From positions 19,120 through 83,119 of the forward strand of contig JAFQPM010000016.1 of NCBI GenBank assembly GCA_017411745.1: a DNA stretch of 64,000 bases. Direction: 5' to 3'. A program made the translations under genes and the position numbers. Shown piece by piece: positions 18,674 through 38,663 of this stretch. The notes beneath the pieces were generated by a model. The model worked only from the letters and a program-made list of their open reading frames with translations. It was not told the DNA's origin and ran no database searches. This DNA is from Clostridia bacterium. Lineage in GTDB: Bacteria > Bacillota > Clostridia > Oscillospirales > CAG-272. Each line of letters starts with the position of its first letter. Positions within the stretch are counted from its first letter, which is position 1.

Positions 18674-20335
18674 TTATTTTTTAATAATAAGGGTAGTGAG
18701 TGATTTTTTCTGTTCTTCAGTTGGTGGCTTTAACTTGCCATTGTTCAAGAGAGTAACAATGCAGTGAAGCAAGAACCATCCGTCAGCGTGGAATACAGAC
18801 TGCAATTCGTACTCTTTCATACGGCGGAGATGTGCAGGAACCGAGTTTAATACAGCCTCGATATAGGGGGCCTTGATAGCATCAAACTCCTCCTTATATT
18901 TTCTTTTAATTTTCTCTCCTATAGCAAGCAGCTTTTCTTGAATTTCTTTGTTTCTCAAAATGATGACTTGCCATGATATTTTGAAGCATCCGTCATAATC
19001 GCCCCAAGTTTTGATATATCCGCGTTCGGAAAGCCATGCATAATCTTCTTTTGAAAGGAGATTTTCTTTTTCGTGTTCATACAACGAAATAACTCGCGCT
19101 GAAGCTTCGAATTCATTACGATTTACACTGATACGTCGTCCTGACCACTCTGTATCAATTTTCCAAAGGATATGATCTCCGTTCATAGCATCATATGGTC
19201 CGCACCAATCTCTCATACGAACATAATCGCTCGGAATTTTCAGATTCTCAGGTACAACAGAAGCATAGGCAATATTATGCGCTCCGTCGGGGCGAATAGT
19301 AGCAACTTCTTCAAAGGTGATTGTGTTATCCATTAGTTTTTTACCCGACATTGCGGCGATATACGGTATAAGCGACCATAAAAGGAAGTTTTTGTCTCTC
19401 AGGGGATTTTCTTTTGTCGAACCTTGAAGCATTTTATTGCAGAAAATATTTTCATCGTCCAAAATACCACTGCTCATTAGTTCCTCATAAAGCTCATTTG
19501 CAAACAATCCCGCCGCTTTTTTATACATTGCGTCTTGCATAGTCAAAAGCTCCGCTGTCGGCTCACTTATGATAAAATTAACGATATACTTATCCCCAAC
19601 TTGCTTCAGAAAACCGTATTCCTCCAAGAAGTCAACTTCGGTTTCGACATATACAGGCGAAACACCAAGGGCATCAGCAATTTCATTTACCGTTTTCGCT
19701 TCGTTACGTACACAATAGCAGATGTTTTGGGAAAGCGCAGAACGGAAAAATTCATCACAAGATTTTGTTCCGATAGAACCGTTGATCCCAACTGATGTAA
19801 ATTTGATAGGGTTAAATTTCAATTCACTTGTTTTTCTCATAGTATCCATACCTCGTTTCAATTCTTTTTTTGCTTCAAACAAGTGCCATTTGACCGTACC
19901 AAGAGGAATATCCAAATCCTTAGCAATATCGGCTTGTTTACGGTTTTCAAAATAATACGCTATTACTATCTTTCTTTGTGTTTTTGAAAGATAAGCAATC
20001 TCACTTTGTAAACGACGAATAGATTTTGTGTTATCATCGAAATCATATTCTGAATCAGGATCGGCAATGATTTCTGCCAATTCATCAATTGATATACCAA
20101 TTATGCCTTTGGATGCTTCACGATAATAATTGCTAAGCGTATTATGTGCGATTGTCCAAATATATTTGCTGACATCCTCAATATCGTCCTTGATTAAAAG
20201 CGATCGAAACGACCGTAATACGATTTCCTGTGAAAGATCCTCCGCATCATATGTATTTTTACATCGTTTTAGCGCAAATCCAAATATGGGTTTCAGATAT
20301 TCAGTTATAATTTTTTCGGCATCTTGTCTGTTCAC
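18674..20335 (-). CDS. Sigma-70 family (ECF-like) sigma factor with a ~380-aa C-terminal extension
   Basis: GTG start 8 nt after GAGGT. Region 2 reads DAEDLSQEIVLRSF. Region 4 reads QRKIVIAYYFENRKQADIAKDLDIPLGTVKWHLFEAKKELK. A second wHTH-like segment (TVNEIADALGVSPVYVETEVDFLEEYGFL) and an unassigned domain follow. No TM segment is seen. Confidence 0.8.
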   Translation of the reverse strand: MNRQDAEKIITEYLKPIFGFALKRCKNTYDAEDLSQEIVLRSFRSLLIKDDIEDVSKYIWTIAHNTLSNYYREASKGIIGISIDELAEIIADPDSEYDFDDNTKSIRRLQSEIAYLSKTQRKIVIAYYFENRKQADIAKDLDIPLGTVKWHLFEAKKELKRGMDTMRKTSELKFNPIKFTSVGINGSIGTKSCDEFFRSALSQNICYCVRNEAKTVNEIADALGVSPVYVETEVDFLEEYGFLKQVGDKYIVNFIISEPTAELLTMQDAMYKKAAGLFANELYEELMSSGILDDENIFCNKMLQGSTKENPLRDKNFLLWSLIPYIAAMSGKKLMDNTITFEEVATIRPDGAHNIAYASVVPENLKIPSDYVRMRDWCGPYDAMNGDHILWKIDTEWSGRRISVNRNEFEASARVISLYEHEKENLLSKEDYAWLSERGYIKTWGDYDGCFKISWQVIILRNKEIQEKLLAIGEKIKRKYKEEFDAIKAPYIEAVLNSVPAHLRRMKEYELQSVFHADGWFLLHCIVTLLNNGKLKPPTEEQKKSLTTLIIKK

Positions 20336-20477: not shown

Positions 20478-20792
20478 TTAGATATTCTTATCAATAAAGC
20501 TCTCGAGAACTGCCTTGTTGCTATATCCTACGGATTTAGCGGCTACCTCGCCGTTTTTGAAGAGAAGAAGCGTGGGAATACTGTCGATTCCGAACTGATT
20601 GCAAAGCTGGGGATTGTTATCAACGTTTACCTTGCAGACCTTTATATCGCTTCTCTGCTCTGCGATCTCGTGAACGATGGGAGCGATCATACGGCAAGGG
20701 CCGCACCACTCTGCCCAGAAGTCTACGAGAACGGGAATTTCGGATTTTACTACTTCGTTTTCAAAATTTTCATTTGTAATATCGATTATCAT
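20478..20792 (-). CDS. trxA: Thioredoxin
   Basis: 104 aa with the canonical WAEWCGPC active site and an IPTLLLFKNG block. Confidence 0.96.
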   Translation of the reverse strand: MIIDITNENFENEVVKSEIPVLVDFWAEWCGPCRMIAPIVHEIAEQRSDIKVCKVNVDNNPQLCNQFGIDSIPTLLLFKNGEVAAKSVGYSNKAVLESFIDKNI

Positions 20793-20813
20793 TTTGTACC
20801 TCTTTAATTTTGA

Positions 20814-21011
20814 TTATTTGCTCTTATAATAAAGCAAGCAGTGGCAATAGCCCTCGAAATCGGGATCCTTGATCTGATCTCTGAACTCCTTGCACATACA
20901 CTTATTTTCAGGGGTTCTCTCTCTGCGGCAAGGACAATAGCCGCCCGTGCGCTCGAGTCCCTCCTTGATAAGCTTTACAACTTCCTTATCGGTATTCTCG
21001 GTTATTTTCAT
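20814..21011 (-). CDS. Small ferredoxin:thioredoxin reductase catalytic-subunit-like protein (three CxC motifs)
   Basis: 65 aa with a GGAGG RBS 8 nt upstream. The Cys pattern is CPC-x9-CMC-x15-CHC (GYCPCRRERTPENKCMCKEFRDQIKDPDFEGYCHCLLY). This resembles the CPC...CPC...CHC signature of FTR catalytic chains. Confidence 0.7.
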   Translation of the reverse strand: MKITENTDKEVVKLIKEGLERTGGYCPCRRERTPENKCMCKEFRDQIKDPDFEGYCHCLLYYKSK

Positions 21012-21036
21012 ATTTTTACCTCCAATTTATGTCAGA

Positions 21037-21972
21037 TCACTTCAAAAATCCGTTGATGATCTCTTCCTCGGCTTGCTTTTCGTCAAGTCCAAGCGTCATA
21101 AGCTTCATAAGCTGCTCGCCTGCGATCTTGCCTATCGCCGCCTCGTGAATGAGCGACGCCTCGGTGTTGTTCGCGATGATCTTCGGTATTGCCTGAACCG
21201 ACGCGTTATCCATAATGATGGCATCGCATTCGGTGTGTCCCGAGCAACGCGCGTTTCCGACAACGTCTGAAATAAAGAGCTGTCGCGAATTATCCTTTGC
21301 TACGGAACGCGAGACGACATGTGCTCCGCAATCCTCACCGTTGAGCGCAACGGTAAATTCGGTCTCGGCAAACTGCTCGCCGTGGGTCATTATCTTTTCG
21401 TGGACAACGAGAGTTGCTTTGTCAGCTAAGGTTGCCTCGGTCTTTCTTTTTGTAGAGTCAACGCCCTTGATCTGCGTTGTTTCCATCTCCATATACGCGC
21501 CCTCGGCAAGCTCGACGATCGTATGAGGATTCATAACGTTCTTGCCGTTTCCGTCTCCCTCGCCGTAATGCTTTTCGACGTACTTGAGCTTGGCGTTCTT
21601 GCCGACAAAGAAGCTGTGTATTCCGCTGTGCTCACTATCCTGAACTCCGCAATTATGGATTCCACAGCCCGCAACTATAAGAACGTCTGCGCCCTCTCCG
21701 ATGTGGAAATCGTTATATACGAGCTCCTTGAGTCCTGTTTCCGACAAAATAACGGGAATATGCACGCTCTCGCGCTTCGTACCCGCCTTGATATAGATGT
21801 CAATTCCGGGCTTATCGGTCTTTTTTTCGATTACTATGTTTTCCGAGGAGTTTTTTCCGTACATCTCGCCGTCCACGCGGAGAGAGTACGCTCCCTCGGG
21901 GACACCGTGAAGGTCCGCTACCTCACGAAGAAGGTTGAGCTGAATACTGTCGAGCTTTTTCTTCTCTGCCAT
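21037..21972 (-). CDS. SufB/SufD family Fe-S cluster assembly protein
   Basis: 311 aa with a beta-helix-type repetitive core. The C-terminal block reads DAIIMDNASVQAIPKI...ASLIHEAAIGKIAGEQLMKLMTLGLDEKQAEEEIINGF. The start overlaps the sufC stop (TAATG). Confidence 0.88.
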   Translation of the reverse strand: MAEKKKLDSIQLNLLREVADLHGVPEGAYSLRVDGEMYGKNSSENIVIEKKTDKPGIDIYIKAGTKRESVHIPVILSETGLKELVYNDFHIGEGADVLIVAGCGIHNCGVQDSEHSGIHSFFVGKNAKLKYVEKHYGEGDGNGKNVMNPHTIVELAEGAYMEMETTQIKGVDSTKRKTEATLADKATLVVHEKIMTHGEQFAETEFTVALNGEDCGAHVVSRSVAKDNSRQLFISDVVGNARCSGHTECDAIIMDNASVQAIPKIIANNTEASLIHEAAIGKIAGEQLMKLMTLGLDEKQAEEEIINGFLK

Positions 21973-22703
21973 TATTCGTCACCTCCCATGGTAAACTTGC
22001 ATCCTGCCTGAGCTGAAAGCAGCTCGGGCAAAATGTCGTTTTTCGCGCCGTATGCGGCAACCTTACCGTCTGCGATAACGACTATCTTGTCTGCGATATC
22101 GAGAATTCTCTCCTGATGGGAGATTATAAGGATATTTCCCTTGGTTTTTTCGTACATCTTTTCAAAGACCTTGATAAGATTGTTGAAGCTCCAAAGGTCT
22201 ATTCCCGCCTCAGGCTCGTCAAACACAGAAAATTTTGTTCCGCGCGCGTTGATCATAGCGATCTCAATTCTTTTGAGCTCGCCGCCCGAAAGAGATTCGT
22301 TTACCTCGCGGTTTACGTACTCCTTGGCACAAAGACCGACCTCGGAGAGATATTTGCACGCCTCAGAGACCGAAATTTTGCTTCCTGCGGCAAAAGATAT
22401 AAGATCCTTGACCGTAATACCCTTAAATCTTACGGGTTGCTGGAAGGCAAAGCTGATGCCTGCATTTGCGCGCTCGGTTATAGTCATATTAGTGATATCC
22501 ACGCCGTCAAGCAATATCTGACCCGAGCTTGCGGTGTAGATTCCCGCGATAAGCTTCGCGAGAGTGGATTTTCCGCCTCCGTTAGGGCCTGTTACGGCAA
22601 CGAAGCGCTCGTTTATAGTGAGACTTACGTCGTCGAGTATCTTTCTTTCCTTGCCCGTTTCGGCATCAGTGACGATATAAGTCAGATTCTTTATTTCTAA
22701 CAT
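21972..22703 (-). CDS. sufC: SufC-like Fe-S assembly ABC ATPase
   Basis: Walker A GPNGGGKST, signature LSGGELKR, Walker B FSVFDEPEAGID, ISHQERIL. Confidence 0.9.
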   Translation of the reverse strand: MLEIKNLTYIVTDAETGKERKILDDVSLTINERFVAVTGPNGGGKSTLAKLIAGIYTASSGQILLDGVDITNMTITERANAGISFAFQQPVRFKGITVKDLISFAAGSKISVSEACKYLSEVGLCAKEYVNREVNESLSGGELKRIEIAMINARGTKFSVFDEPEAGIDLWSFNNLIKVFEKMYEKTKGNILIISHQERILDIADKIVVIADGKVAAYGAKNDILPELLSAQAGCKFTMGGDE

Positions 22704-22755
22704 AGGATTCCTTTCAGATGAGTCTATATATTAAAAAGTGACATTCTTTCATATT

Positions 22756-22784
22756 ATTCTACCACATTTTTTTCGTTAAATCAA
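22756..22784 (-). promoter_or_regulatory. Candidate sigma-A promoter for sufC / sufB-D / FTR-like / trxA
   Basis: Minus strand: TTGATT (22784-22779), 17-nt spacer ending in TGg, TAGAAT (22761-22756). Confidence 0.45.
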
Positions 22785-22837
22785 TAGATAAAATGAATTT
22801 TTTAGAATATTCCATTCTTGGCATTATGGAGTAAATT

Positions 22838-22866
22838 AGGGGAAGAAAATCTGAATTTCTTCCCCT
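22838..22866 (-). terminator. Hairpin immediately downstream of the trxB-like gene
   Basis: 11-bp perfect stem aggggaagaaa (22838-22848) / tttcttcccct (22856-22866). The U-tract is poor. Confidence 0.5.
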
Positions 22867-22873
22867 TACTATT

Positions 22874-23779
22874 TTAATTATCCAAGTATCTGCAAGCCGC
22901 GAGAGCCGCTACTGCGCCGTCGCCGCATGCCGTTGCTATTTGACGGATGTTTTTCGTGCGGCAGTCGCCTGCAACGAAAAGTCCTTCGGTTTCGGTAGCA
23001 CAGTTTTCATCGGATACGATATATCCGCGGTCGGAAAGCGTTACGACGTTCTTATACTGCTCGTTTTCGGGGATCTGTCCGATAGCTACGAACATTCCGT
23101 CGAGGTCAAGTCTTGTTTTCTCGCCCGATGCGGTATTTTTAATGATGATACCGCCGAAAACCTCTGCTCCGTGTATCTCTTCAACGGTAGAGCCATAGAT
23201 TATCTCAACGTTGGCTCTCTTGCGAAGAATCTCTGCAAGCTTTTCTTCGCCCGTGAGAAAATCGAGGTTCTGAACGACGTAGACTTTTTCGCAACCGTCG
23301 GAAAGCATTATTGCCTCCTGAAGTGCGGAGTTGCCACCGCCGATGACCGCTACGGTCTTGCCTGCGTAAAACGCGCCGTCACACACGGCACAGAAGGAGA
23401 TGCCGTTTCCAACGAAGTCCTCCTCGCGTTCGATACCGAGCAAGCGGTGCTTTGCGCCTGTTGCGAGAATTACGGAACGAGCCATAAACTCGCCCTCATC
23501 GCTACTTACACAAAAGAAGCTTCCCTCCTTGTGTACGCCTGTGACCTCGCACATATCTATCTCGGCGCCGAGCTCTATTGCTTGTGAAACAAGCTTTTCG
23601 GCAAGCTCGTTACCGCTGATCTGCGCGTATCCGGGATAATTTTCAATTTTTGGGGAAAAGGTCATCTGTCCGCCGAAGGTTCCTTTATCGAGGATGAGGA
23701 CGCTTTTATCCGCACGCCGTGCATAGATCGCCGCGGTAAGACCCGCGGGACCCGCGCCGACTATTATCAAATCATACAT
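22874..23779 (-). CDS. trxB: Thioredoxin-reductase-like flavoprotein (low-Mr TrxR fold) lacking the NADPH 2'-phosphate motif
   Basis: FAD motif IIVGAGPAGLTAA, redox CAVC (C130/C133), second dinucleotide motif VAVIGGGNSA, and C-terminal FVAGDC. Where E. coli TrxR has HRRDGFR, this protein reads VQNLDFLTG. Confidence 0.88.
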   Translation of the reverse strand: MYDLIIVGAGPAGLTAAIYARRADKSVLILDKGTFGGQMTFSPKIENYPGYAQISGNELAEKLVSQAIELGAEIDMCEVTGVHKEGSFFCVSSDEGEFMARSVILATGAKHRLLGIEREEDFVGNGISFCAVCDGAFYAGKTVAVIGGGNSALQEAIMLSDGCEKVYVVQNLDFLTGEEKLAEILRKRANVEIIYGSTVEEIHGAEVFGGIIIKNTASGEKTRLDLDGMFVAIGQIPENEQYKNVVTLSDRGYIVSDENCATETEGLFVAGDCRTKNIRQIATACGDGAVAALAACRYLDN

Positions 23780-23820
23780 ACTGATCTGCCTTTCTTTTAT
23801 CTAACGGGACCCAACGTCTA

Positions 23821-26235
23821 TCAAGCGTTTACCGTTTCGATATACTTCTTGATATTGGAAAGATTTGCCGCCTTGGCAACCTCAACACCATTTTCAACTA
23901 CTACGAGTGTGGGTGCCTGTCTGATTCCGTACTTAGCAATAAGATCAAGGTGCTCGTCTGCATAGAGCTTTTCGTAGGAAACACCTGCTTTGTCAAGGAA
24001 CTCGCACGCGATCTTACAGTTGGGGCAGGTCTTGGTTGCGAACAGCATTACCTTGGTTTCTGCCGCGGGCTCGCAGGCACACTCCTCTACCATGGGCTCT
24101 GCAACTGCGTTGATAGTTCTTACGCTGTCAGCACCAACGTTGATCTCGGGGTGAAGCTCGGTGGAACGCTCGATGTTATAATTTCTTCTCTCCTTGAACT
24201 CCTGGCTCTTACCGTCATTCCAGTTCTGAACGGGTCTGTAATAACCTGTGATACGGCTATATACCTCGGTATTCTTGCCGCACTTGGGACAGGTGTACTC
24301 TTCACCGTTGATATATCCGTGGTCGGTACATACCGAGTACGTGGGAGATATCGTGTAGTAAGGAAGCTTATAATTCTCTGCGATCTTGCGAACGAGGTTT
24401 GCCGCACTCTTCCATGTAGGAAGCTTCTCACCGAGGAACGCGTGGAATACCGTACCAGAGGTGTAGAGGGTCTGGAGCTCGTCCTGAATGTCGAGAGCGT
24501 CGAAGATATCCTCGGTATAGCCTACGGGAAGGTGGCTGGAGTTGGTATAGTAAGGAGCTTTTGCGTTATCGGTTGCGGTAATGATGTCGGGCCATCTCTT
24601 TCTATCGTGCTTTGCAAAACGGTAGGAGGTGGACTCTGCGGGAGTTGCCTCAAGGTTATAGAGGTCGCCGTACATTTCCTGATAGTCGGAGAGTCTTTCT
24701 CTCATGTGATTGAGAACGTTCTTGGAGAACTCCTGGGTCTCCTTATGAGTCATATCGGCTCTGAGCCACTTTGCGTTAAGACCAACCTCGTTCATACCAA
24801 CGAGACCGATGGTCGAGAAGTGGTTATTAAAGGTTCCGAGATATCTCTTGGTGTAAGGATACAGACCCTCGTCGAGAAGCTTGGTGATAACGGTTCTCTT
24901 GGTCTTGAGCGAACGAGCCGCGATATCCATAAGCTTATCAAGTCTCTTATAGAAGTCTTCCTCATTCTCTGCAAGATATGCAATTCTGGGCATATTTATC
25001 GTAACTACACCGACAGAACCCGTGGACTCACCCGAACCGAAGAAACCACCCGACTTTTTGCGGAGCTCACGAAGGTCAAGACGGAGACGGCAGCACATAG
25101 AACGAACGTCGCTGGGCTCCATATCGGAGTTGATGTAGTTGGAGAAGTAAGGAGTACCGTACTTTGCGGTCATTTCGAAGAGGAGCTTGTTGTTCTCTGT
25201 TTCGGACCAGTCGAAGTCGCGAGTGATGGAATATGTGGGGATAGGATACTGGAAGCCTCTGCCGTTTGCGTCACCCTCGATCATGATCTCGATGAACGCC
25301 TTATTGACCATGTCCATTTCCTTCTTACAATCCTTGTACTTGAAGTCCATTTCCTTGCCGCCGACGATACAGTTGAGCTCTGCAAGATCGTTAGGAACGG
25401 TCCAGTCGAGAGTGATGTTCGTGAAGGGAGACTGCGTTCCCCAACGAGAAGGAGTATTTACACCGTAAATGAAGGACTGGATGCACTGCTTTACTTCCTT
25501 GTAGGAGAGGTTATCTACCTTTACGAAGGGAGCGAGATATGTGTCAAAGGAGGAGAATGCCTGTGCGCCTGCCCACTCGTTCTGCATGATACCGAGGAAG
25601 TTTACCATCTGGTTGCAGAGGGTGGAAAGGTGACCTGCGGGAGAGGAGGTGATCTTACCGGTTACGCCGCCAAGTCCTTCCTGAATAAGCTGCTTTAATG
25701 ACCAACCTGCACAGTAGCCCGTAAGCATAGAAAGGTCGTGGATGTGAAGATCAACGTTTCTGTGAGCGTTTGCGATCTCGTCGTCGTAAACCTCGCTGAG
25801 CCAATAGTTAGCCGTGATAGCGCCCGAGTTGGACAGGATAAGTCCTCCTACGGAATAGGTTACGGTGGAGTTCTCTTTTACTCTCCAGTCGAGAGCGCGG
25901 AGATACTGGTCTACGGTTGCCTTATAGTCGAGCGCGGTGCCCTGAACGTTTCTGAGCTTCTCTCTCTGACGGCGATACAGAATATATGCCTTAGCAACGT
26001 CTGCATAGCCCGCCTGAACGAGAACCGACTCAACACAGTCCTGGATCTCCTCGACGGAGATAAGTCCGTCCTTGATCTTGGGCTCGAATTCTGCCGTTAC
26101 CTTCAACGCCAAAAAATCTATAATATTCTGATTGAACTGTTTTTCCTGTGCCTCAAAAGCAAGCTTTATTGCATCAGAAATTTTGCTAAGATTAAATTCT
26201 ACGATCTTTCCGTCTCTTTTTTGTACGCTGTACAT
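23821..26235 (-). CDS. nrdD: Anaerobic ribonucleoside-triphosphate reductase NrdD (class III) with a fused C-terminal thioredoxin-fold domain
   Basis: N-terminal ATP-cone (VQKRDGKIVEFNLSKI), finger-loop RSMCCRLRLD, Zn-ribbon CPKCG, glycyl-radical motif SRITGYYRPV. An extra ~135 aa follows the glycyl-radical motif and ends in VMLFATKTCPNCKIACEFLDK...APTLVV. Confidence 0.95.
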   Translation of the reverse strand: MYSVQKRDGKIVEFNLSKISDAIKLAFEAQEKQFNQNIIDFLALKVTAEFEPKIKDGLISVEEIQDCVESVLVQAGYADVAKAYILYRRQREKLRNVQGTALDYKATVDQYLRALDWRVKENSTVTYSVGGLILSNSGAITANYWLSEVYDDEIANAHRNVDLHIHDLSMLTGYCAGWSLKQLIQEGLGGVTGKITSSPAGHLSTLCNQMVNFLGIMQNEWAGAQAFSSFDTYLAPFVKVDNLSYKEVKQCIQSFIYGVNTPSRWGTQSPFTNITLDWTVPNDLAELNCIVGGKEMDFKYKDCKKEMDMVNKAFIEIMIEGDANGRGFQYPIPTYSITRDFDWSETENNKLLFEMTAKYGTPYFSNYINSDMEPSDVRSMCCRLRLDLRELRKKSGGFFGSGESTGSVGVVTINMPRIAYLAENEEDFYKRLDKLMDIAARSLKTKRTVITKLLDEGLYPYTKRYLGTFNNHFSTIGLVGMNEVGLNAKWLRADMTHKETQEFSKNVLNHMRERLSDYQEMYGDLYNLEATPAESTSYRFAKHDRKRWPDIITATDNAKAPYYTNSSHLPVGYTEDIFDALDIQDELQTLYTSGTVFHAFLGEKLPTWKSAANLVRKIAENYKLPYYTISPTYSVCTDHGYINGEEYTCPKCGKNTEVYSRITGYYRPVQNWNDGKSQEFKERRNYNIERSTELHPEINVGADSVRTINAVAEPMVEECACEPAAETKVMLFATKTCPNCKIACEFLDKAGVSYEKLYADEHLDLIAKYGIRQAPTLVVVENGVEVAKAANLSNIKKYIETVNA

Positions 26236-26358
26236 TTCCTTCTCCTTTTGTTTTTTATATTTTTTGAATTTTGATTACTGATTTTGCCTTATGCCATATA
26301 GGATCTTTCTAAAAAAGGGCATAAAATGGGCGCGGACACAGATCCGCGCCGCATTAGC

Positions 26359-26387
26359 ATTATACTATATTTAGTGGTAGTTGTCAA
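26359..26387 (-). promoter_or_regulatory. Consensus sigma-A promoter of nrdD
   Basis: Minus strand reads gggTTGACAactaccactaaatatagTATAATgc. The -35 is at 26387-26382, the spacer is 17 nt, and the -10 is at 26364-26359. Confidence 0.7.
26362..26377. promoter_or_regulatory. NrdR box 1 (overlaps the -10/spacer of the nrdD promoter)
   Basis: atactatatttagtgg matches about 13/16 positions of the NrdR consensus acaCwAtATaTwGtgt. Confidence 0.6.
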
Positions 26388-26394
26388 CCCCTAA

Positions 26395-26410
26395 ACACAA
26401 TATATTGTGT
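26395..26410. promoter_or_regulatory. NrdR box 2 (perfect palindrome)
   Basis: acacaatatattgtgt is a perfect 16-bp palindrome and a full match to the NrdR-box consensus. Its centre is 33 bp from box 1. Confidence 0.85.
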
Positions 26411-26426
26411 CAAATTTCGAATTTTG

Positions 26427-26442
26427 TCACTATATATAGTTT
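26427..26442. promoter_or_regulatory. NrdR box 3 (abuts the nrdG stop codon)
   Basis: tcactatatatagttt matches 14/16 consensus positions. Its centre is 32 bp from box 2. Confidence 0.7.
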
Positions 26443-27155
26443 TATACCCCTCTTAATTGTGCATTTGGCACAAAAGGCAACAAAACGTTCAAAAAGTTTT
26501 CCATTTCGCTCTCATTATAGGAAGAAATTTCCTTTCCGATTATGTCGCCCGAGTCCTTAAATTGCTGCAAAAAATACTTCTCGTCGCCCTTGATCCATTC
26601 ACCGATCAAATAAAAATCTTCTTCGGTATGGAACGGCTTTGCAACCGTGGTTCTGAATTCAAAATCCACCTTCCCTTCCATCAGGTAATTTTTACTTTCA
26701 ATTATCGGAGCAAGGTCATAGTTCTCCGCAAGACCGACCGTATAGGCGTACTTTGCGGGGTGGTTTTTGATATCCATAGCAACGTAGTCTACGAGCTTAT
26801 CCTCGACCAATCTTCTTATCACCTCGGGGCGAGTTCCGTTTGTGTCGAGCTTTACCGCATAGCCGAGCGCCTTGACTTCTTTAATAAAGTCGTACAGCCC
26901 CGGCATAAGCGTCGGTTCTCCGCCCGTGATCGCAACTCCGTCTAGCACACCTGCTCTTTTTTTCAAAAATGCTAATATCTCGGCGTTTGAGTATGGCTTC
27001 TGCTCGTCGGCACGGACAACCAAAGATGCGTTATGGCAAAACGGACATTTGAAATTACAGCCTCTCGTAAAGAGCGTGCAGGCTACCTTACCCGGAAAAT
27101 CGAGGAGCGTGAGCTTTTGCAATCCTGCGATAATATTGTCCTTCATTTTTTTCAT
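26442..27155 (-). CDS. nrdG: Anaerobic ribonucleotide reductase activating protein NrdG (radical SAM)
   Basis: The CNFKCPFCHN radical-SAM cluster motif and GVAITGGEPTL are present. The ATG at 27155 overlaps the ABC ATPase stop (ATGA). The in-frame ATG at 27146 is better spaced from GAGGT and may be the true start. Confidence 0.93.
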   Translation of the reverse strand: MKKMKDNIIAGLQKLTLLDFPGKVACTLFTRGCNFKCPFCHNASLVVRADEQKPYSNAEILAFLKKRAGVLDGVAITGGEPTLMPGLYDFIKEVKALGYAVKLDTNGTRPEVIRRLVEDKLVDYVAMDIKNHPAKYAYTVGLAENYDLAPIIESKNYLMEGKVDFEFRTTVAKPFHTEEDFYLIGEWIKGDEKYFLQQFKDSGDIIGKEISSYNESEMENFLNVLLPFVPNAQLRGV

Positions 27156-27895
27156 ACCTCGTCGAAATTGATCTTGCGCGAAAGGAGATATCCGTTATCC
27201 ATTGTATATACGGTATCTGCACGCTTGGCTATCTTCATATCGTGTGTGACCATTACGAGCGTAAGTCCTATCTGTGCACGGGTTTCCAGCAACAGCTCAA
27301 GAACCTCGTCGGCGTTTTTACGGTCGAGATTTCCCGTCGGCTCGTCGGCAAACAAGATCTGCGGCATATTTATAAGCGCGCGAGCTATAGCAACTCTCTG
27401 CTGCTGTCCGCCCGAAAGCTCGCTTGGCAGATGGTGAAGTCTATCCGACAGACCAAGCATAGGAATGAGCTTTTTAAGGTGCTCCTCGTAGGAAAATTCG
27501 TCGCGGCGACACATCATTGTCGGCACGAGAATATTCTCATACGCGGTGAACTGCGGTATGAGGTTATGCTTTTGAAAAACAACGCCGATATTCATTCCGC
27601 GATAGCGATTGAGCTCGTCGGAGCCCATTTTCGTTATCTCTCTGCTTCTTATTTTTACAGATCCCGCGTTGGGTTTATCGAGACCTGCACATATATTCAT
27701 AAACGTACTTTTTCCCGAGCCTGAAGATCCGATTATTGCCACGAATTCACCCTCGTGCACCTTGATGCTTGCTCTGTTGACCGCGGTCACAACGTCATCA
27801 TACTGCTTGTACTGCTTTATGATGTCGGTAGCCTCCAGCATAATTCTGTTGGGATCTATGGTGTTAAGGTCAATGGCACTTGTTTTATTTTCCAT
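27152..27895 (-). CDS. ABC transporter ATP-binding protein (MacB/LolD/FtsE-like)
   Basis: Walker A GSSGSGKST, Q-loop, signature LSGGQQQRVAIARAL, Walker B ILFADEPTGNLD. Confidence 0.93.
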   Translation of the reverse strand: MENKTSAIDLNTIDPNRIMLEATDIIKQYKQYDDVVTAVNRASIKVHEGEFVAIIGSSGSGKSTFMNICAGLDKPNAGSVKIRSREITKMGSDELNRYRGMNIGVVFQKHNLIPQFTAYENILVPTMMCRRDEFSYEEHLKKLIPMLGLSDRLHHLPSELSGGQQQRVAIARALINMPQILFADEPTGNLDRKNADEVLELLLETRAQIGLTLVMVTHDMKIAKRADTVYTMDNGYLLSRKINFDEV

Positions 27896-27911
27896 AATTT
27901 AACTCCGTTTA

Positions 27912-30161
27912 TTATAACTCAATTTTCTGCTCTTCAAGCAGCTTGCTCTCTCTTTCAAGCTTCTTCTTGTAAAGAATGAAAGGAATTACGCTTGAAATAC
28001 ATCCGCAAAGTGCGGAAACGCCTGCGTATAGAAGTATAGTCGAGAATGGAACAAAACTATTGAAGGAAACGTTCATTCCAGGCACTCCGAGTCTTGGCAG
28101 CACGCTGGTAAATATCCTGTATATTCCATAACAGGTCAATCTGCTGAGTATGAGGTTTACAACAAAGCTTACAGCAAATATCAGAACACCAGAGACCGCA
28201 TGTATGCCTCCGATCTCCTTGATCGTTGCACCAATCGAGCCAAGCGTTCTGAACTCCGCTTCCCTCTTTTTATAGAACATCACCTGCGAGAAAATCCAAA
28301 CGACAGGAGATATCATAAGCACGAGGATAGAAAGCAGATAAAGAAGACCCGGAAGATTTACGCGGTTGTCTACTATGGAATATATGTCCTCGTTGGTATA
28401 TGCTACGCTCCAATCGGGATAGTTTTCCATTATGGTTTTAATTTCAGATCGAATATCAGAAACATTATCGAGATCGATGCCCGATTCCGAGAATATCTTA
28501 AGCTCTGTTATTGCGTGTTTATCGGTGGTTACGCCGTAATAAGTATCGGCGTTCATTCCTACGATGAAGCTATCGGTAGCATCGGTATCGTGGATGACCG
28601 CGCCGACGGTATATTCGGTATAAATAAAGGAACAATGGTAGATCTGCTGTGTAAGTATCTTATTGATATCGGACTGCGGGAGCATTTCGCTATCGGTCGA
28701 TACCCAATCGGCAACTACTACCGTGTCGCCCGGCTTAAAATCAAAGCTTTTAGTACCATAGAGTCCTTCGCTTATTATTATCATATTGTCATCTGCGAGA
28801 AGCTTTTGAGCATCGTACCCTGCAAGATACTCAACGTCGTAAAGAGATTCGTACATCTCAAGCTCAAGCGCATCAATGCAAACGTATTTGCAGCGGTTGG
28901 TTGCTCGATTATATCCCTTGACTTCATCAAGAGAGGCTACCGTCAAATTAGATCCGCCTACCTCGGTACCCGGAAGAATAAGCAAATGGTCCATTCTTAC
29001 GTCAAAGCTCTTGCTCTGCTCGAAGGTGATCTTATCGACGTGGTCGATATTTTCAAGCTTTTCAAGAAGCTCTTCCGCTTCCCAATTCGCCTTGTGGCGA
29101 TTTTCATCCAATATGGTGCTGAATTTATAAGTGAGGACTACCGATTCGTCGGGTGCTTCGTTCTCCGTTTTCAACATATTGGCGCAATATATTCCCGTAA
29201 CGAAGATGACCGAGAAGCAGACTGCTCCGAGGACAAGTCTTGCGACGTACTTTCTGAATCTCCACGTAGTGTAAGTCTCGTAATTGAGTGGCATTTTCTT
29301 TGCGAAGATATTGAAAGAACGGCGCGGAGAGGACACGAAATTGGAGTTGTCGGCGGTGGTTATAAGCGCTATCGGGGGCTTGATGAAAAGCGTTCCGAGG
29401 GATGAGCACGCTGCGACAAAAGCCGCAATAAAGGTCAATGCCGCGTAGAGCAAGAGCTGCAAAAGCGAGATCTTGACTGCAACTCCGCTATCTGCATATA
29501 CTGTCAAGGTCAAAAGATACGATATGATCGCGGACGGAATGAGTGTGATCAGATTTATCGTCAACAGCTCGTTCATAGCGATCTTACCGAGCATTTTTTT
29601 GTCGGCGCCGAAGGTCATATATATGCCGTATTGGAATTTATAGTGATTGGTTCGCACCGAGTAGATGACCGCGAGGATCAGAGTGCCTATAATAAAGGAT
29701 AGGGCTCCGATTATGACGGACGAGAGAAGTATCTCTCCGCGCAACTCGGTCCTATAGGTATATTTCGGGGTCACTTGGCATTGTACCGTTACGTTACTGA
29801 GATACTTCTCTGTAAACTCCTCCAGCGCTCCGCCCTTAAGGTTGACTCCTATGCTTTCCTTATTTCCTACGTAGCCAAAGCTAGTAAAGCAGGCTTTACT
29901 GCTTGAAAGATCGTAATTGAGGCGGTTCATAACCGTTGATATTCCCGTATTAGTTCCCGTTATAGTTACGTCGTATTTGTAATTTTCTTCGAACAGAGTG
30001 TCGTTGGCATTATAATTGGTGAACGCAGAGAAAGTCCAGATCCCGAAAAGGAGCTGGACTACTATTACTGCGGCATACAAGCCTATAAATTCCTTGTAAT
30101 TTATCAGGACGCTTTTTACCGAGCTTTTTATTGAATTCTTAAGCTTTCTTAAAAATTCCAA
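27912..30161 (-). CDS. FtsX-like ABC transporter permease (two FtsX modules, large extracytoplasmic domain)
   Basis: 749 aa with a TTG start 8 nt after AGAGG. The layout is a TM helix, an extracellular domain and a 3-TM bundle, occurring twice. This is typical of MacB-type fused permeases. Confidence 0.85.
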   Translation of the reverse strand: MEFLRKLKNSIKSSVKSVLINYKEFIGLYAAVIVVQLLFGIWTFSAFTNYNANDTLFEENYKYDVTITGTNTGISTVMNRLNYDLSSSKACFTSFGYVGNKESIGVNLKGGALEEFTEKYLSNVTVQCQVTPKYTYRTELRGEILLSSVIIGALSFIIGTLILAVIYSVRTNHYKFQYGIYMTFGADKKMLGKIAMNELLTINLITLIPSAIISYLLTLTVYADSGVAVKISLLQLLLYAALTFIAAFVAACSSLGTLFIKPPIALITTADNSNFVSSPRRSFNIFAKKMPLNYETYTTWRFRKYVARLVLGAVCFSVIFVTGIYCANMLKTENEAPDESVVLTYKFSTILDENRHKANWEAEELLEKLENIDHVDKITFEQSKSFDVRMDHLLILPGTEVGGSNLTVASLDEVKGYNRATNRCKYVCIDALELEMYESLYDVEYLAGYDAQKLLADDNMIIISEGLYGTKSFDFKPGDTVVVADWVSTDSEMLPQSDINKILTQQIYHCSFIYTEYTVGAVIHDTDATDSFIVGMNADTYYGVTTDKHAITELKIFSESGIDLDNVSDIRSEIKTIMENYPDWSVAYTNEDIYSIVDNRVNLPGLLYLLSILVLMISPVVWIFSQVMFYKKREAEFRTLGSIGATIKEIGGIHAVSGVLIFAVSFVVNLILSRLTCYGIYRIFTSVLPRLGVPGMNVSFNSFVPFSTILLYAGVSALCGCISSVIPFILYKKKLERESKLLEEQKIEL

Positions 30162-30178
30162 TTTGGATACCTCTCAAT

Positions 30179-30775
30179 TTATATGTAACTGCGCTGGATT
30201 GCCACCACTCTGCCGAGAATGAGCACCTCGTCGACTATTATCGGCTTCATAGTGCTGTTTTCGGGCTGAAGACGGTAATGACCGTCCTCGCGGAAAAATC
30301 TCTTGACAGTTGCTTCATTTTCAATAAGTGCAACCACGATCTCTCCGTTTTCGGCGTAGCAGGTCTTTTCGGCTATTACCATATCGCCGTCCATAATTCC
30401 GACCTCTATCATACTTTCGCCCTTTACCTTCAGAGCAAACATCTCCTCAGCAGAGGTTCTTCCGATATATCCGATATATCCGTCGAAATCCTCTTCGGCA
30501 AGGATAGGCTGGCCTGCGGTGACTGTGCCGAGCACGCGCACTGCAGATACCATAGGCATATCCTCGTTAATTACGCTTATAGCGCGGCTTTTTCCGTCTT
30601 CTTTACGTATATAGCCAAGCGTGTCGAGGCGGTTGAGGTACATATGAACGGTTGAGGTGCTCTTATATCCGAGATCAGCCATAATATCGCGCACGCTGGG
30701 CGCAAATCCGTTATTCTTTACCGAATTTACGATATAGTTATAAACTTTTTGTTCTTTCGGCTTGAGTTTTTCCAT
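30179..30775 (-). CDS. lexA: LexA repressor
   Basis: N-terminal wHTH (PSVRDIMADLGYKSTSTVHMYLNRL), Ala-Gly cleavage site VTAGQP, catalytic Ser in GESM and Lys in ATVKRF. Confidence 0.94.
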   Translation of the reverse strand: MEKLKPKEQKVYNYIVNSVKNNGFAPSVRDIMADLGYKSTSTVHMYLNRLDTLGYIRKEDGKSRAISVINEDMPMVSAVRVLGTVTAGQPILAEEDFDGYIGYIGRTSAEEMFALKVKGESMIEVGIMDGDMVIAEKTCYAENGEIVVALIENEATVKRFFREDGHYRLQPENSTMKPIIVDEVLILGRVVAIQRSYI

Positions 30776-34558: not shown

Positions 34559-35899
34559 ATGTTTCGCTTTAAATCTATGGGTAGTACCCACATACCCCAT
34601 TATAAAAATACTGCCGGAAAGCCTGCCGTTATAATGCCTGACGCAAAGGAGGTCTTATTGCCTCTTTCGCAACATATCGGGGCTCCTGCAACTCCTATTG
34701 TCAATGTTGGTGACGAGGTTAATGTCGGTCAGAAAATTGCCGAGGCTAACGGATTTGTTTCTTCACCTATATACGCTTCGGTTTCGGGTAAGGTCTCGAA
34801 AATCGAGGACTATCTGCGGCCCGACGGCAGAACGGTGGCAGCTATACGAATCGTCAGCAACGGTTTGATGACGAGGTGTGAGGAGACCACGCCTCCGTCC
34901 GTTTCTGATCTCGAAGATCTCATCGGCGCGGTGCGAGAATCGGGTCTCGTTGGTCTTGGCGGTGCAGGATTTCCGCTTTCGGTAAAGCTCGAGGCGCTCA
35001 AAAAGGGCGTAATTGACAAGATCATCATCAACGGTGCGGAATGCGAGCCCTACATAACCTGCGACACCCACGCTATGCTTTACGATTCCGAATGGATCGG
35101 CAAAGGTATCGCTTTGCTTGAAAAATTCGCTCCCGACGTTGATCAATTCATTATCGGAATTGAAAAAAACAAGCCTGCGTGCATTAAGGAAATGAAGCGC
35201 ATCTTCGAAGGTGATGAAAAGGTCAAGGTTATTTCTCTTCCCGACACCTATCCGCAAGGCGGCGAAAAGGTACTGATATACAACACGACAAAAAGGATAA
35301 TAAACGAGGGCAAGCTGCCAGCTGACGTAGGAGTACTCGTTATAAACGTCACTTCCTTGACTATTCTTGCTAAATACGTGGAGTGCGGCGAGCCTCTCGT
35401 TTCAAGATGTGTAACTCTCGACGGTTCCGCAGTTGCCGAGCCCCAAAATATAATCGCTCCTATCGGTTGCTCGATACGTGAGCTGGTTGAATTCGGCGGC
35501 GGACTCAAGTGCGAAGTCGGAAAGGTGCTTTACGGAGGTCCTATGATGGGAACTACCGCGGCATCGCTCGACGAACCAATAGTCAAGACGACGGGAGCGA
35601 TCACGATCCTTAACCGCAAGGATTCTCTGCTCTCCGAGCCCACCGCTTGTATTCACTGCGGACGTTGTATTCGTTCGTGTCCGCTTGATCTTTCTCCCGT
35701 GGCTTATTCAAAGGCACTTGAATGCGAAAACAAAGAGGACAAGATCGCTATGCTTGAAAAGAACAAAATCATGCTTTGTATGGAGTGCGGTTGTTGCTCA
35801 TTCGTTTGTCCTGCAAGCCGTCCTCTTGTACAAAACAACCGAATCGCCAAGGCCGAGTACAGAGAGTATCAAGCGGCCATGGCAAAGCTTAAGAAATGA
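34559..35899 (+). CDS. rnfC: Rnf electron transport complex subunit C
   Basis: GLGGAGFP NADH/FMN-site motif and two ferredoxin motifs, CIHCGRCIRSCP and CMECGCCSFVCP. Confidence 0.95.
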   Translation: MFRFKSMGSTHIPHYKNTAGKPAVIMPDAKEVLLPLSQHIGAPATPIVNVGDEVNVGQKIAEANGFVSSPIYASVSGKVSKIEDYLRPDGRTVAAIRIVSNGLMTRCEETTPPSVSDLEDLIGAVRESGLVGLGGAGFPLSVKLEALKKGVIDKIIINGAECEPYITCDTHAMLYDSEWIGKGIALLEKFAPDVDQFIIGIEKNKPACIKEMKRIFEGDEKVKVISLPDTYPQGGEKVLIYNTTKRIINEGKLPADVGVLVINVTSLTILAKYVECGEPLVSRCVTLDGSAVAEPQNIIAPIGCSIRELVEFGGGLKCEVGKVLYGGPMMGTTAASLDEPIVKTTGAITILNRKDSLLSEPTACIHCGRCIRSCPLDLSPVAYSKALECENKEDKIAMLEKNKIMLCMECGCCSFVCPASRPLVQNNRIAKAEYREYQAAMAKLKK

Positions 35900-35912
35900 C
35901 GGAGGTGACGTT

Positions 35913-36854
35913 ATGGAAAAATTAATAGTATCATCGTCTCCGCATTTACACGGCAAAACCACGACAACGAGTATTATGAGAGACGTTCTCATCGCGCTTT
36001 CCCCTGCGGCGATAGCTGCAGTTGTGCTTTACGGAATAAAGGCGCTTATAATTATTTCCGTTTGCGTTGCTACATCCGTTTTGTCGGAATTTATTTTCAA
36101 TATCATCGCCAAAAAGAAGCAGACGGTCGGTGATCTGAGCGCGATCGTGACCGGACTTCTGCTTGCTTTAAGCCTTTCAACGCGAGTAAGCATCTGGCAC
36201 TGTGTTGTCGGCTCGGTTTTCGCGATAGTTGTGGTCAAATGTCTTTTTGGCGGTATTGGATGCAATTTTGCTAATCCTGCGGTTACCGCGCGCGTGATGT
36301 TATTGATCGCTTTTGGCAAGGTTGCCGGGGGATCTGCTACAAGATATATGTCTGTTGAGCTTGCCGCGAGTGCGACTCCGCTTGCGGTCATCAAGGACGG
36401 TGAGGAACTGCTTCCCTCTCTTGCTGATATGCTTATCGGTAACCGCGGCGGTGCAATCGGTGAGGTCTGTGCTATCGCTCTTATTCTTGGATTTGTTTAT
36501 CTTGTGATAAGACGTGTGATCACGTGGGAAACTCCTGTTGTTTTCGTTGCGACGGTATTCGTTCTTTCTCTTATCGTCAAGCAGGATCTTACTGCGGCGC
36601 TCTATCAGGTCCTTGGCGGTGGTCTGCTGCTCGGCGCGATATTTATGGCGACCGATTACGTAACTACTCCCATTACCCGAAGCGGAAAAGCGGTCTTTGC
36701 TCTTGGATGCGGTATAATTACCGTTCTTATTCGCTTCTGGGGCGACTATCCCGAGGGAGTCTCGTTTGCGATCTTATTTATGAACATTCTCACTCCTTAT
36801 ATCGAAAGGCTTTGCCGCAACAAGCCGATTGGAGGTGTTAAGAATGAAAAATAA
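35913..36854 (+). CDS. rnfD: Rnf complex subunit D
   Basis: SSSPHLH N-terminus and polytopic NqrB/RnfD-like TM pattern, with the FMN-attachment region TDYVTTP. The start is at the ATG at 35913 after GGAGGTGA; the listed upstream extension overlaps rnfC. Confidence 0.93.
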   Translation: MEKLIVSSSPHLHGKTTTTSIMRDVLIALSPAAIAAVVLYGIKALIIISVCVATSVLSEFIFNIIAKKKQTVGDLSAIVTGLLLALSLSTRVSIWHCVVGSVFAIVVVKCLFGGIGCNFANPAVTARVMLLIAFGKVAGGSATRYMSVELAASATPLAVIKDGEELLPSLADMLIGNRGGAIGEVCAIALILGFVYLVIRRVITWETPVVFVATVFVLSLIVKQDLTAALYQVLGGGLLLGAIFMATDYVTTPITRSGKAVFALGCGIITVLIRFWGDYPEGVSFAILFMNILTPYIERLCRNKPIGGVKNEK

Positions 36855-37371
36855 GCTTTTTCCCACGTTGGCGCTCGGAATTATCTGCCTTGTTGTCGTT
36901 TTGGTGTTGGCGGCGGTAAACACGGTCACAGCTCCGCTGATAGAAAAGGCTCAGGCAGAAAAGGTACAAAAAGCGCTTGCCGAGGTAATGCCCGAGGGCG
37001 TTAATTTCACTGAAATAGAGGTTGACGGATTGCCCGCGGCGGTCACGAAAGTTTACTCCGAGGACGGCGGCGGCTACGTATTCCAAATGAGCGTGGTCGG
37101 ATACAAGCCCGGACTTGTAATTCTCTGCGGTATTGACGCAAACGGAGTTATTACCGGCGCGGACTTCGTTTCATCAAATGAAACTCTCTCAGCAGAGGTT
37201 GGTCTTGGAAAAAACTTTATCGGGTTCACTTCTGATACCGTAACGGTCGAATTGGTCGCAGGCTCGACGGCAAAGAAGACTACGAGCGCATATTACTCCG
37301 CTATTGAGGCGGCGCTCGAGGCGTTTGAAATAATCTCTCAAAATTCCGAAGGACAGGAGGATACAAAATGA
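36844..37371 (+). CDS. rnfG: Rnf complex subunit G
   Basis: Single N-terminal TM helix plus an FMN-binding domain (SGATITS-type region reads VSSNETLSAEVG). The ATG at 36844 follows GGAGGTG. Position within rnfCDGEAB fits. Confidence 0.88.
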   Translation: MKNKLFPTLALGIICLVVVLVLAAVNTVTAPLIEKAQAEKVQKALAEVMPEGVNFTEIEVDGLPAAVTKVYSEDGGGYVFQMSVVGYKPGLVILCGIDANGVITGADFVSSNETLSAEVGLGKNFIGFTSDTVTVELVAGSTAKKTTSAYYSAIEAALEAFEIISQNSEGQEDTK

Positions 37372-38649: not shown

Positions 38650-38663
38650 GGGGGTGTTAAGAT

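Follow-up and report, generated by a model that had tools for sequence, protein, structure and literature searches.

A predicted thiol-dependent class III ribonucleotide reductase encoded as a three-gene unit with a fused redoxin domain and an adjacent thioredoxin reductase-family flavoprotein

We analysed a 64,000-nucleotide stretch of the genome of a gut Clostridia bacterium (contig JAFQPM010000016.1, positions 19,120 to 83,119; hereafter, the window), which carries the genes of an oxygen-sensitive class III ribonucleotide reductase (RNR) next to genes for redoxin, flavoprotein, and Suf-like proteins. As judged from gene order across related loci, nrdG, an nrdD gene whose product ends in a redoxin domain, and a gene for a thioredoxin reductase (TrxR)-family flavoprotein form a conserved unit, and we consider it probable that this three-gene unit constitutes a thiol-dependent class III RNR. 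We observed directly how NrdD is built from its domains, which diagnostic residues it carries, that the fusion is conserved, that synteny holds in both directions, and that NrdR boxes are enriched. Window genes were taken from an open reading frame (ORF) listing and from Pfam and NCBIfam profile searches, scored against the family cutoffs (Table 1). A preliminary description of the same DNA had listed the genes from nrdG to trxA as a one-strand series, and we recovered every one of them at its described position on the minus strand; nrdG and the nrdD-to-trxA cluster together occupy 6.7 kb, and the rnfCDGEAB genes, which had also been reported and are real, lie 7.4 kb off. The nrdG start shares 4 nt with the upstream ABC ATPase gene, and exactly 41 nt separate the nrdD stop from the TrxR-like gene. 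This gap, the hairpin that follows, and the consensus promoter are likewise present where they had been placed.

Table 1. Positions of genes, motifs, and predicted regulatory elements in the window
Feature	Position	Strand	Evidence or remark
nrdG, radical-SAM activase of class III RNR	26442-27155	-	TIGR02495, 217 bits (cutoff 131)
nrdD, for the 804-aa catalytic subunit of class III RNR	23821-26235	-	PF13597, 639 bits; NF006126, 1143 bits (cutoff 548)
NrdD domain order			ATP-cone (3-92), NRDD catalytic barrel (121-686), glycyl-radical domain, linker, redoxin domain
Y174-C175; C175 is the beta-A cysteine	25711-25716	-	On Thermotoga maritima Y124-C125
Finger-loop motif M380-C381-C382-R383	25087-25098	-	Aligns to T. 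maritima S328-C329-C330-R331
E529, predicted NrdD2 glutamate	24649-24651	-	Equivalent of T. maritima E495, proposed proton donor
Glycyl-radical motif RITGY, radical glycine G664	24241-24255	-	Aligns to T. maritima G621
Acidic linker, residues 691-727	24055-24165	-	Low pLDDT
C719-A-C721 in linker	24073-24081	-	
C-terminal minimal thioredoxin-fold domain, ~78 aa, residues 728-804	23824-24054	-	Pfam, AlphaFold2, Foldseek
Redoxin active site C737-P-N-C740	24016-24027	-	cis-Pro motif APTL also in domain
TrxR-family flavoprotein, low-molecular-weight, 301 aa	22874-23779	-	TIGR01292, 334.1 bits (cutoff 343.45)
TrxR motifs GAGPAG (FAD binding), C130-AV-C133 (redox disulfide), GGGNSA			Kept
QNLDFLT in TrxR, residues 170-176	23252-23272	-	Stands in place of HRRxxxR
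nrdD sigma-70 promoter TTGACA-17-TATAAT	26359-26387	-	12/12 consensus positions
Three NrdR-box-like 16-bp palindromes	26427-26442, 26395-26410, 26362-26377	-	Consensus match
GC-rich 9-bp hairpin with U-run	26329-26350	-	Directly after -10 element, at 5' end of predicted nrdD leader (~115 nt)
Hairpin after TrxR-like gene	22838-22866		Separates RNR unit from downstream genes
Promoter-like site between TrxR-like gene and sufC	22756-22784	-	
SufC-like ATPase	21972-22703	-	SufC, 135 bits (NCBIfam cutoff 213)
SufBD-core protein, 311 aa	21037-21972	-	Pfam SUFBD_core, 82 bits
65-aa three-CxC protein	20814-21011	-	FeThRed_B (PF02943), 19.8 bits, E = 8e-4 (cutoff 22)
trxA, canonical, WCGPC	20478-20792	-	129 bits
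rnfCDGEAB	34559-39464	Opposite to nrdD cluster	

The nrdD product has the features of a class III RNR, namely the NRDD domain, a glycyl-radical motif, and the Zn-ribbon residues C636, H639, C649, and C652, together with an adjacent nrdG. Residue equivalences were obtained from a HMMER alignment of the window NrdD to the T. maritima enzyme (4COI), whose residues 328-331 and 495 are the diagnostic columns of Burnim et al. (PMC9669993), with the numbering confirmed in PMC9669993 and PMC4493059. The finger loop reads RSMCCRLRLD (residues 378-387) and therefore does contain both a methionine and a cysteine doublet, as had been noticed in the preliminary description. According to the definition of Wei et al., as relayed in PMC4493059, NrdD2 enzymes possess an active-site glutamate (E495 in T. 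maritima and E438 in Neisseria bacilliformis), and both NrdD2 hallmarks, the third finger-loop cysteine and this glutamate, were found in the window protein. Moreover, the MCCR motif is present in all 81 NrdDs that we aligned (those of 80 related loci, described below, plus the window), and E529 is invariant in the NrdD alignment. The window enzyme shares nothing but the methionine with the formate-dependent NrdD1 (Escherichia coli and T4 type), which combines a single-cysteine MGCR loop with the absence of an active-site glutamate, and it differs from NrdD3 (Methanosarcina barkeri type; QCCR/A, with neither methionine nor glutamate) in having both Met380 and E529. Since MCCR falls on T. maritima S328-R331 and E529 falls on E495, this alignment, which had been proposed as a check, assigns the window NrdD as an NrdD2-like protein of the MCCR variety, in the double-cysteine plus glutamate group rather than in the MGCR formate-only group. 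Methionine occurs in 83% of double-cysteine NrdDs, and MCCR enzymes are regarded as equipped for either formate or thioredoxin (PMC9669993); the coexistence of methionine and a cysteine doublet is thus an open point of the whole field and not an oddity of the window gene.

The tail of NrdD matched the Pfam Glutaredoxin family with 27 bits (cutoff 22.9) over residues 729-779, and the Glutaredoxin/Thioredoxin Pfam match as a whole spans residues 727-800. An AlphaFold2 (AF2) model of the domain (pLDDT 85) showed the order beta-alpha-beta-alpha-beta-beta-alpha, which is the thioredoxin-fold topology, and Foldseek aligned this model to thioredoxins at TM-scores of 0.7-0.8. Both hallmarks of the fold are present, namely a conserved CxxC where helix 1 begins (CPNC) and a conserved cis-Pro loop (APTL). 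The curated NCBIfam models for NrdH, YruB, Grx3, and Trx all stayed below threshold (17-29 bits versus cutoffs of 85-97), and the weak matches were to YruB-type glutaredoxin-like proteins, NrdH, MJ0307-type thioredoxins, and PDO units. In an AF2 model of full-length NrdD, built from a 44-sequence alignment, the mean pLDDT was 45 and residues 728-803 alone were confident. To place the fusion among relatives, we scanned one genome per GTDB species, which returned at least 597 confirmed relatives, and kept 80 loci with NrdD identities of 75-94%. The fused redoxin that had been described for the window is real and conserved, being found in all 80 of these loci, where the match to the query runs to about residue 800, and in the 120 best database homologues (80-97% identity), all of which are ~800 aa long. 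Across the 81 NrdDs, window included, the tail motif is CPNC (73) or CPKC (7). Among representatives at 50% identity, the fused clade is nested within unfused MCCR NrdDs of 690-724 aa, and more distant fused proteins also exist (P0278, 895 aa, with CPKC; P0391, 942 aa). An assembly or gene-calling artefact was considered as a source of the fusion and rejected, because the fusion is present in hundreds of independent assemblies.

The linker that joins the glycyl-radical and redoxin domains is ~37-45 residues long and has no column conservation across the 81 sequences. Its cysteine content is nevertheless higher than that of the remaining protein (3.8% versus 1.7%), and 35 of the 81 linkers contain a CxC or CxxC pair, versus 6.5 +/- 2.3 in composition-preserving shuffles (maximum of 15 in 1000), with such a pair being absent in 33 linkers. 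Like the shuttle cysteines at the C-termini of class I and class II RNRs, this pair could serve as a shuttle dithiol, though not a universal one; alternatively, it could form a metal site.

Two further observations concern other NrdD relatives. A 782-aa NrdD-like protein (P0267, 48% identity) retains the architecture, including the C-terminal domain, and has lost the beta-A cysteine, the finger-loop CC, the glycyl motif, and the CxxC, with a low-complexity N/Q-rich insert in addition; it appears from these losses to be a degenerate, non-catalytic paralogue. Further, lengths of 1000-1879 aa are common among the NrdD representatives, with matches in two to four separate stretches and, in some, PF14890 (P0454 and P0470 were examined); we take these to reflect recurrent insertions, probably inteins.

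To determine which neighbours accompany the fused nrdD, ORFs around the gene were called in the 80 loci and clustered, with 71 loci being analysable for neighbour clusters. Among these, nrdG lies directly upstream of nrdD in 58 and a TrxR-family gene directly downstream in 56, and no other neighbour cluster was found in more than five loci. By coordinates, 63 of the 80 loci have a same-strand TrxR gene that starts within 700 nt of the nrdD stop, and in two more it starts at ~1 kb. The reverse test, a metagenome scan with the TrxR alignment, returned 80 loci, of which 68 extended 300 nt or more upstream of the gene; in 61 of these 68, TrxR directly follows the C-terminus of a fused nrdD, in one the distance is 2.1 kb, and in six no fused nrdD is present. 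The linkage of the TrxR-like gene that had been suggested for the window is therefore tight in both directions. In two sampled contexts of unfused MCCR NrdDs (P0266 and P0471), a small sample, no neighbouring thioredoxin or TrxR gene was seen. The record titles of the fused loci name Oscillospiraceae, Acutalibacteraceae, Christensenellaceae, Lachnospiraceae, Faecalibacterium, and several Lentisphaeria/Victivallaceae bins, labels of metagenome-assembled genomes that are to be read with caution. As a separate observation, the P0266 context (L174) places an unfused MCCR NrdD amid a long run of small unannotated ORFs, with no adjacent nrdG or redoxin gene, and looks like a phage or other mobile element.

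The TrxR-family protein has the GxGxxG, CxxC, and GxGxxA signatures of NTR proteins. It lacks HRRxxxR, which is defined as the NADPH 2'-phosphate motif in PMC10880999 and PMC5627308, and it scores below the TIGR01292 cutoff (Table 1). We aligned 66 TrxRs, comprising 65 from the nrdD-adjacent loci and the window protein, and found the pattern Q-N/D-L/K-x-x-x-T in 60 of them; the other six (L021, L038, L041, L044, L047, and L053) have at the same position a canonical HRRxxFR and are thus of the NADPH type. The occurrence of a reductase of the other cofactor type in the same slot argues for functional coupling, in that what is selected would be a TrxR beside the fused NrdD. Two of these six, L038 and L041, are Faecalibacterium-labelled bins and represent a natural cofactor swap at a fixed position. 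The best match of the window TrxR among solved structures was 7jyp (244 bits), which has QNLPYLT at the same position. NTR-like PDB entries scored 229-244 bits, versus 127-153 bits for FFTR entries (6gna, 6gnc, 6gnd, and 5j60); an FFTR-like C-terminal tail was not found, as the protein has no extension past the end of Escherichia coli TrxB. These comparisons set the protein outside the characterised FFTR clades, and in the motif test it also fails as an NTR. Ferredoxin as electron donor, which the preliminary description had entertained, is not supported; the protein is much closer to the NTR-type (244 bits) than to the clostridial FFTR 6gna (134 bits). TrxRs without HRR use NADH, ferredoxin, F420, or donors not yet known. 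Given that the NADPH 2'-phosphate motif is missing from the window TrxR, we rank NADH first as its most likely donor and reduced ferredoxin or flavodoxin second.

The expression signals upstream of nrdD point to NrdR control, as had been proposed for this promoter. In addition to the perfect sigma-70 match, the centres of the three NrdR-box-like palindromes are 32 and 33 bp apart, and the boxes lie on both sides of the -35 element and overlap the -10 element. The scan used an NrdR-box consensus that reportedly derives from work by Rodionov and Gelfand in 2005, and in the whole 64 kb window it matched just these three sites, with a chance expectation of 0.52. Consistent with this, 53 of 85 matches in the 80 related loci lie no more than 400 nt upstream of nrdD. 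Tandem 16-bp boxes spaced by about three helical turns at a promoter mark an NrdR regulon, of which nrdD is therefore a predicted member; nrdR itself is absent from the 64 kb window. The GC-rich hairpin at the start of the predicted leader might confer stability on the mRNA 5' end, act as an attenuator, or end nrdG transcription, and it is no known riboswitch, since an Rfam scan of the window gave no match.

The consensus promoter between nrdG and nrdD, the hairpin after the TrxR-like gene, the promoter-like site in front of sufC, and a terminator-like hairpin 3' of trxA suggest three transcription units, which most likely comprise (i) lexA, an FtsX-like permease gene, an ABC ATPase gene, and nrdG, (ii) nrdD and the TrxR gene, and (iii) sufC, sufBD, the 65-aa gene, and trxA. 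Because of the 4-nt overlap and gaps of at most 17 nt, nrdG appears to be co-transcribed with the ABC transporter and LexA genes, not with nrdD. In the first unit, lexA, the gene for the 749-aa FtsX-like permease, the ATPase gene, and nrdG lie head-to-tail (26442-30775, minus strand), and the adjacency of the ATPase gene and nrdG recurs in L005. The Cheo-type LexA box GAACN4GTTC occurs in the window less often than expected by chance, with no match upstream of lexA.

The genes of the third unit and the Rnf genes are neighbours in this lineage only and, on the evidence of synteny, lie outside the conserved RNR unit. All four of sufC, sufBD, the 65-aa gene, and trxA accompany nrdD in L001 (NrdD 94% identical) and in the metagenome fragment L091, where they follow the TrxR gene in the same order, and in no other locus. 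The Suf-like pair is found near nrdD only in L001, L002, L005, and L091; in L005 (NrdD 86% identical), it is 2.4 kb more distant, with an opposite-strand gene in front of it, and a peroxiredoxin gene follows it in place of the 65-aa gene and trxA. Rnf genes are missing from the 10 kb around nrdD in all 80 loci. The suf labels given in the preliminary description hold in part, in that SUFBD_core passes its Pfam threshold, whereas both the SufC-like and the SufB/D proteins fall below all NCBIfam equivalog cutoffs (SufC, 135 versus 213; SufD, 74 versus 222; SufB, 68 versus 346). The same is true for the label of the 65-aa protein as similar to the catalytic subunit of ferredoxin:thioredoxin reductase (FTR): the three CxC motifs are present, whereas their spacing differs and the FeThRed_B match is sub-threshold. 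Its cysteines at positions 26, 28, 38, 40, 56, and 58 give CPC-x9-CMC-x15-CHC, as compared with CPC-x16-CPC-x8-CHC in FTR catalytic subunits, with an equal first-to-last span of 30 residues. The family has more than 2600 homologues in which all six cysteines are invariant, and its profile hit no PDB chain even at E = 10, so that the sub-threshold Pfam match and the cysteine pattern are what links it to FTR. In the window, L001, L091, L085, L166/L167, and L171, trxA comes directly after the 65-aa gene; in L170, genes for a DsbD-TM protein and for a Trx-like protein precede it, and in L081-L084 and L168/L169 the 65-aa gene stands alone. We therefore best read the 65-aa gene and trxA as a separate module that is not tied to the RNR, a candidate minimal FTR-like reductase, which has no solved relative, with its TrxA. 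Directly downstream of trxA, a 553-aa protein is encoded (18674-20335, minus strand) whose first ~160 residues contain sigma-70 regions 2 and 4 and whose remaining ~390 residues form an extension.

On our favoured reading of the three-gene unit, we infer the direction and partners of electron flow, as well as the identity of the donor, as follows. Turnover would oxidise C175 and a finger-loop cysteine (C381 or C382) to a disulfide, which the CPNC dithiol, tethered on its flexible acidic linker, would re-reduce, with the linker CxC pair (~40% of species) as a possible intermediate relay. The adjacent TrxR would then use its CAVC disulfide and FAD to recycle the oxidised redoxin domain, and nrdD and the TrxR gene would be transcribed from the consensus promoter, which the three NrdR boxes cover, under NrdR control. 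Several points weigh against this reading. The finger loop keeps the methionine that supports formate chemistry in E. coli, and either route is possible according to PMC9669993. The sequence of the QNL-type TrxR does not reveal its electron donor. About 15% of the fused nrdD loci have no TrxR gene nearby, and none was adjacent in the distant fused lineages P0278 and P0391. Finally, the full-length AF2 model is too poor for judging whether the tethered domain reaches the active-site loop.

A bolder form of the thiol-dependent reading, which we put forward tentatively and hold to be rather unlikely, is that the QNL TrxR is independent of pyridine nucleotides, is driven by ferredoxin or flavodoxin, and serves essentially class III RNR only, with NrdD containing a full internal relay from CPNC through the linker CxC to the finger-loop CC and C175. 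If this is true, low-potential electrons would reach deoxyribonucleoside triphosphates in a bacterium without free thioredoxin, NADPH, or formate, and the dominant MCCR class of NrdDs would be settled as thiol-driven. Conversely, formate might still be the turnover reductant through a Met380/Cys175 thiosulfuranyl route, with the redoxin and TrxR maintaining or activating the enzyme, for instance by keeping the Zn-site, glycyl-domain, or finger-loop cysteines reduced for radical installation by NrdG after exposure to oxidants in the gut. While the methionine is conserved in the MCCR of all 81 sequences, and MCCR enzymes have the components of both routes (PMC9669993), we regard this as unlikely, as the NrdD2 glutamate and the second finger-loop cysteine, which in the N. 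bacilliformis enzyme go with formate-independent chemistry, are invariant, and a dedicated, co-transcribed reductase in ~80-90% of loci would be a large investment for occasional repair.

The remaining alternatives concern the neighbourhood rather than the active site. The entire 6.7-kb cluster could be a single ferredoxin pathway, as had been hypothesised in the preliminary description, running from Rnf or other sources to ferredoxin, then to the 65-aa protein and/or the TrxR, and via TrxA and the fused redoxin to NrdD, with Suf providing Fe-S clusters. This would account for genes on one strand within so short a distance, the three CxC motifs and weak FeThRed_B match of the 65-aa protein, a TrxR without the NADPH motif, and rnfCDGEAB 7.4 kb away, and a precedent reportedly exists in the NrdH and FTR-like reductase of the M. 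barkeri RNR operon. The synteny described above, however, largely refutes it: sufC, sufBD, the 65-aa gene, and trxA accompany nrdD in L001 and L091 only, a peroxiredoxin gene replaces the last two in L005, the 65-aa gene is found in unrelated contexts, and Rnf is absent from the 10 kb around nrdD in the 80 loci. Further, a hairpin and a separate promoter-like site split the cluster after the TrxR gene, and the TrxR is closer to the NTR-type than to FFTR. We consider a common ferredoxin pathway highly improbable. Conservation of adjacency beyond this genome, which the preliminary description had itself set as its test, is strong for the TrxR-like gene and fails for the trx/FTR/suf genes, so that this part of the hypothesis falls; of the thiol pathway drawn through all clustered components, the fused redoxin and the TrxR stand as linked, whereas Suf, the FTR-like protein, TrxA, and Rnf do not. 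Alternatively, the TrxR-like gene might encode a housekeeping thioredoxin reductase that lies beside nrdD by chance, with the fused domain being reduced by the general thiol pool. Given that ~90% of the sampled QNL subfamily lies directly behind a fused nrdD, that no stand-alone thioredoxin gene accompanies the TrxR gene in the loci, and that the window has a separate TrxA beside a different candidate reductase, this would be a most improbable coincidence, even though an ordinary NADPH-type TrxR occupies the position in six lineages and some fused nrdD loci have no TrxR nearby.

For the most common double-cysteine (MCCR) class III RNRs, formate and thioredoxin are both possible reductants (PMC9669993), and the attachment of reductant machinery to NrdD, together with a genetically linked reductase, is strong genomic evidence for thiol-based turnover. 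At least 80 species-level genomes from gut and rumen carry the cassette (with all NrdDs fused and TrxR directly downstream in 63), which may be how abundant commensals of humans and animals mainly obtain their DNA precursors. As a self-contained three-protein system, it can be reconstituted. Our analysis also defines a TrxR subfamily in which QNLxxxT stands in place of HRRxxxR.

Thioredoxin-dependent NrdD2 enzymes, a redoxin and reductase in the M. barkeri RNR operon, and glutaredoxin (Grx) fusions to RNR subunits are established. In the literature searched, we did not find descriptions of the breadth of the fusion, its pairing with TrxR, the QNL-type subfamily, or their bearing on the MCCR reductant question, and, in agreement with the preliminary description, no biochemistry of an NrdD::redoxin fusion, which appears in one passing listing: a supplementary table of PMC6187632 (2018) contains a single grx::nrdD fusion, not studied there, from Lachnospiraceae bacterium TWA4 (subclass NrdDd). 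The N. bacilliformis NrdD is thioredoxin-dependent (PMC4390871, PMC9669993), and it and the T. maritima NrdD2 share with the window enzyme the double-cysteine finger loop, the beta-A cysteine, and the active-site glutamate (PMC4493059). In each case, a protein dithiol rather than formate is expected as the reductant, which for T. maritima is a protein not yet identified. The window enzyme differs in three respects: (i) it has MCCR, with the methionine kept, where the known motif is SCCR; (ii) its redoxin is fused in cis behind the glycyl-radical domain, whereas the known systems use free thioredoxin and an NADPH-dependent TrxR; and (iii) reductase genes of its type are co-located with nrdD and mostly lack the NADPH motif. 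The operon of the M. barkeri NrdD3, on which Wei et al. worked in 2015, is said to encode an NrdH-like redoxin and a ferredoxin:disulfide reductase. It thus resembles our system in encoding a dedicated redoxin and its own reductase with a class III RNR; unlike our system, it is archaeal, has QCCR/A without methionine or glutamate, keeps the redoxin as a separate protein, and uses a [4Fe-4S] FTR-type reductase instead of a flavoprotein.

The closest parallel to the fusion itself is the Grx::ATP-cone::NrdB protein of Facklamia ignava, in which the fused Grx was shown to reduce its own enzyme in cis (PMC6187632), the role that we propose for the tail of the window NrdD; that system is of class I, with an N-terminal, glutathione-linked redoxin on the radical-generating subunit and no dedicated reductase gene. 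For the reductase, the nearest comparisons are the low-molecular-weight TrxRs that do not use NADPH, namely the clostridial and cyanobacterial FFTRs, the NADH-preferring TmTR and DvTR3, and the donor-unknown DvTRi and TaTrxR (PMC5627308, PMC10880999, PMC12796991). The window TrxR shares with them the fold, the CxxC, and the FAD site, as well as the loss of HRRxxxR; it differs in keeping GxGxxA, in having the conserved QNLxxxT, in having no C-terminal aromatic tail, and in that it appears to be dedicated to an RNR-fused redoxin, not to free thioredoxin.

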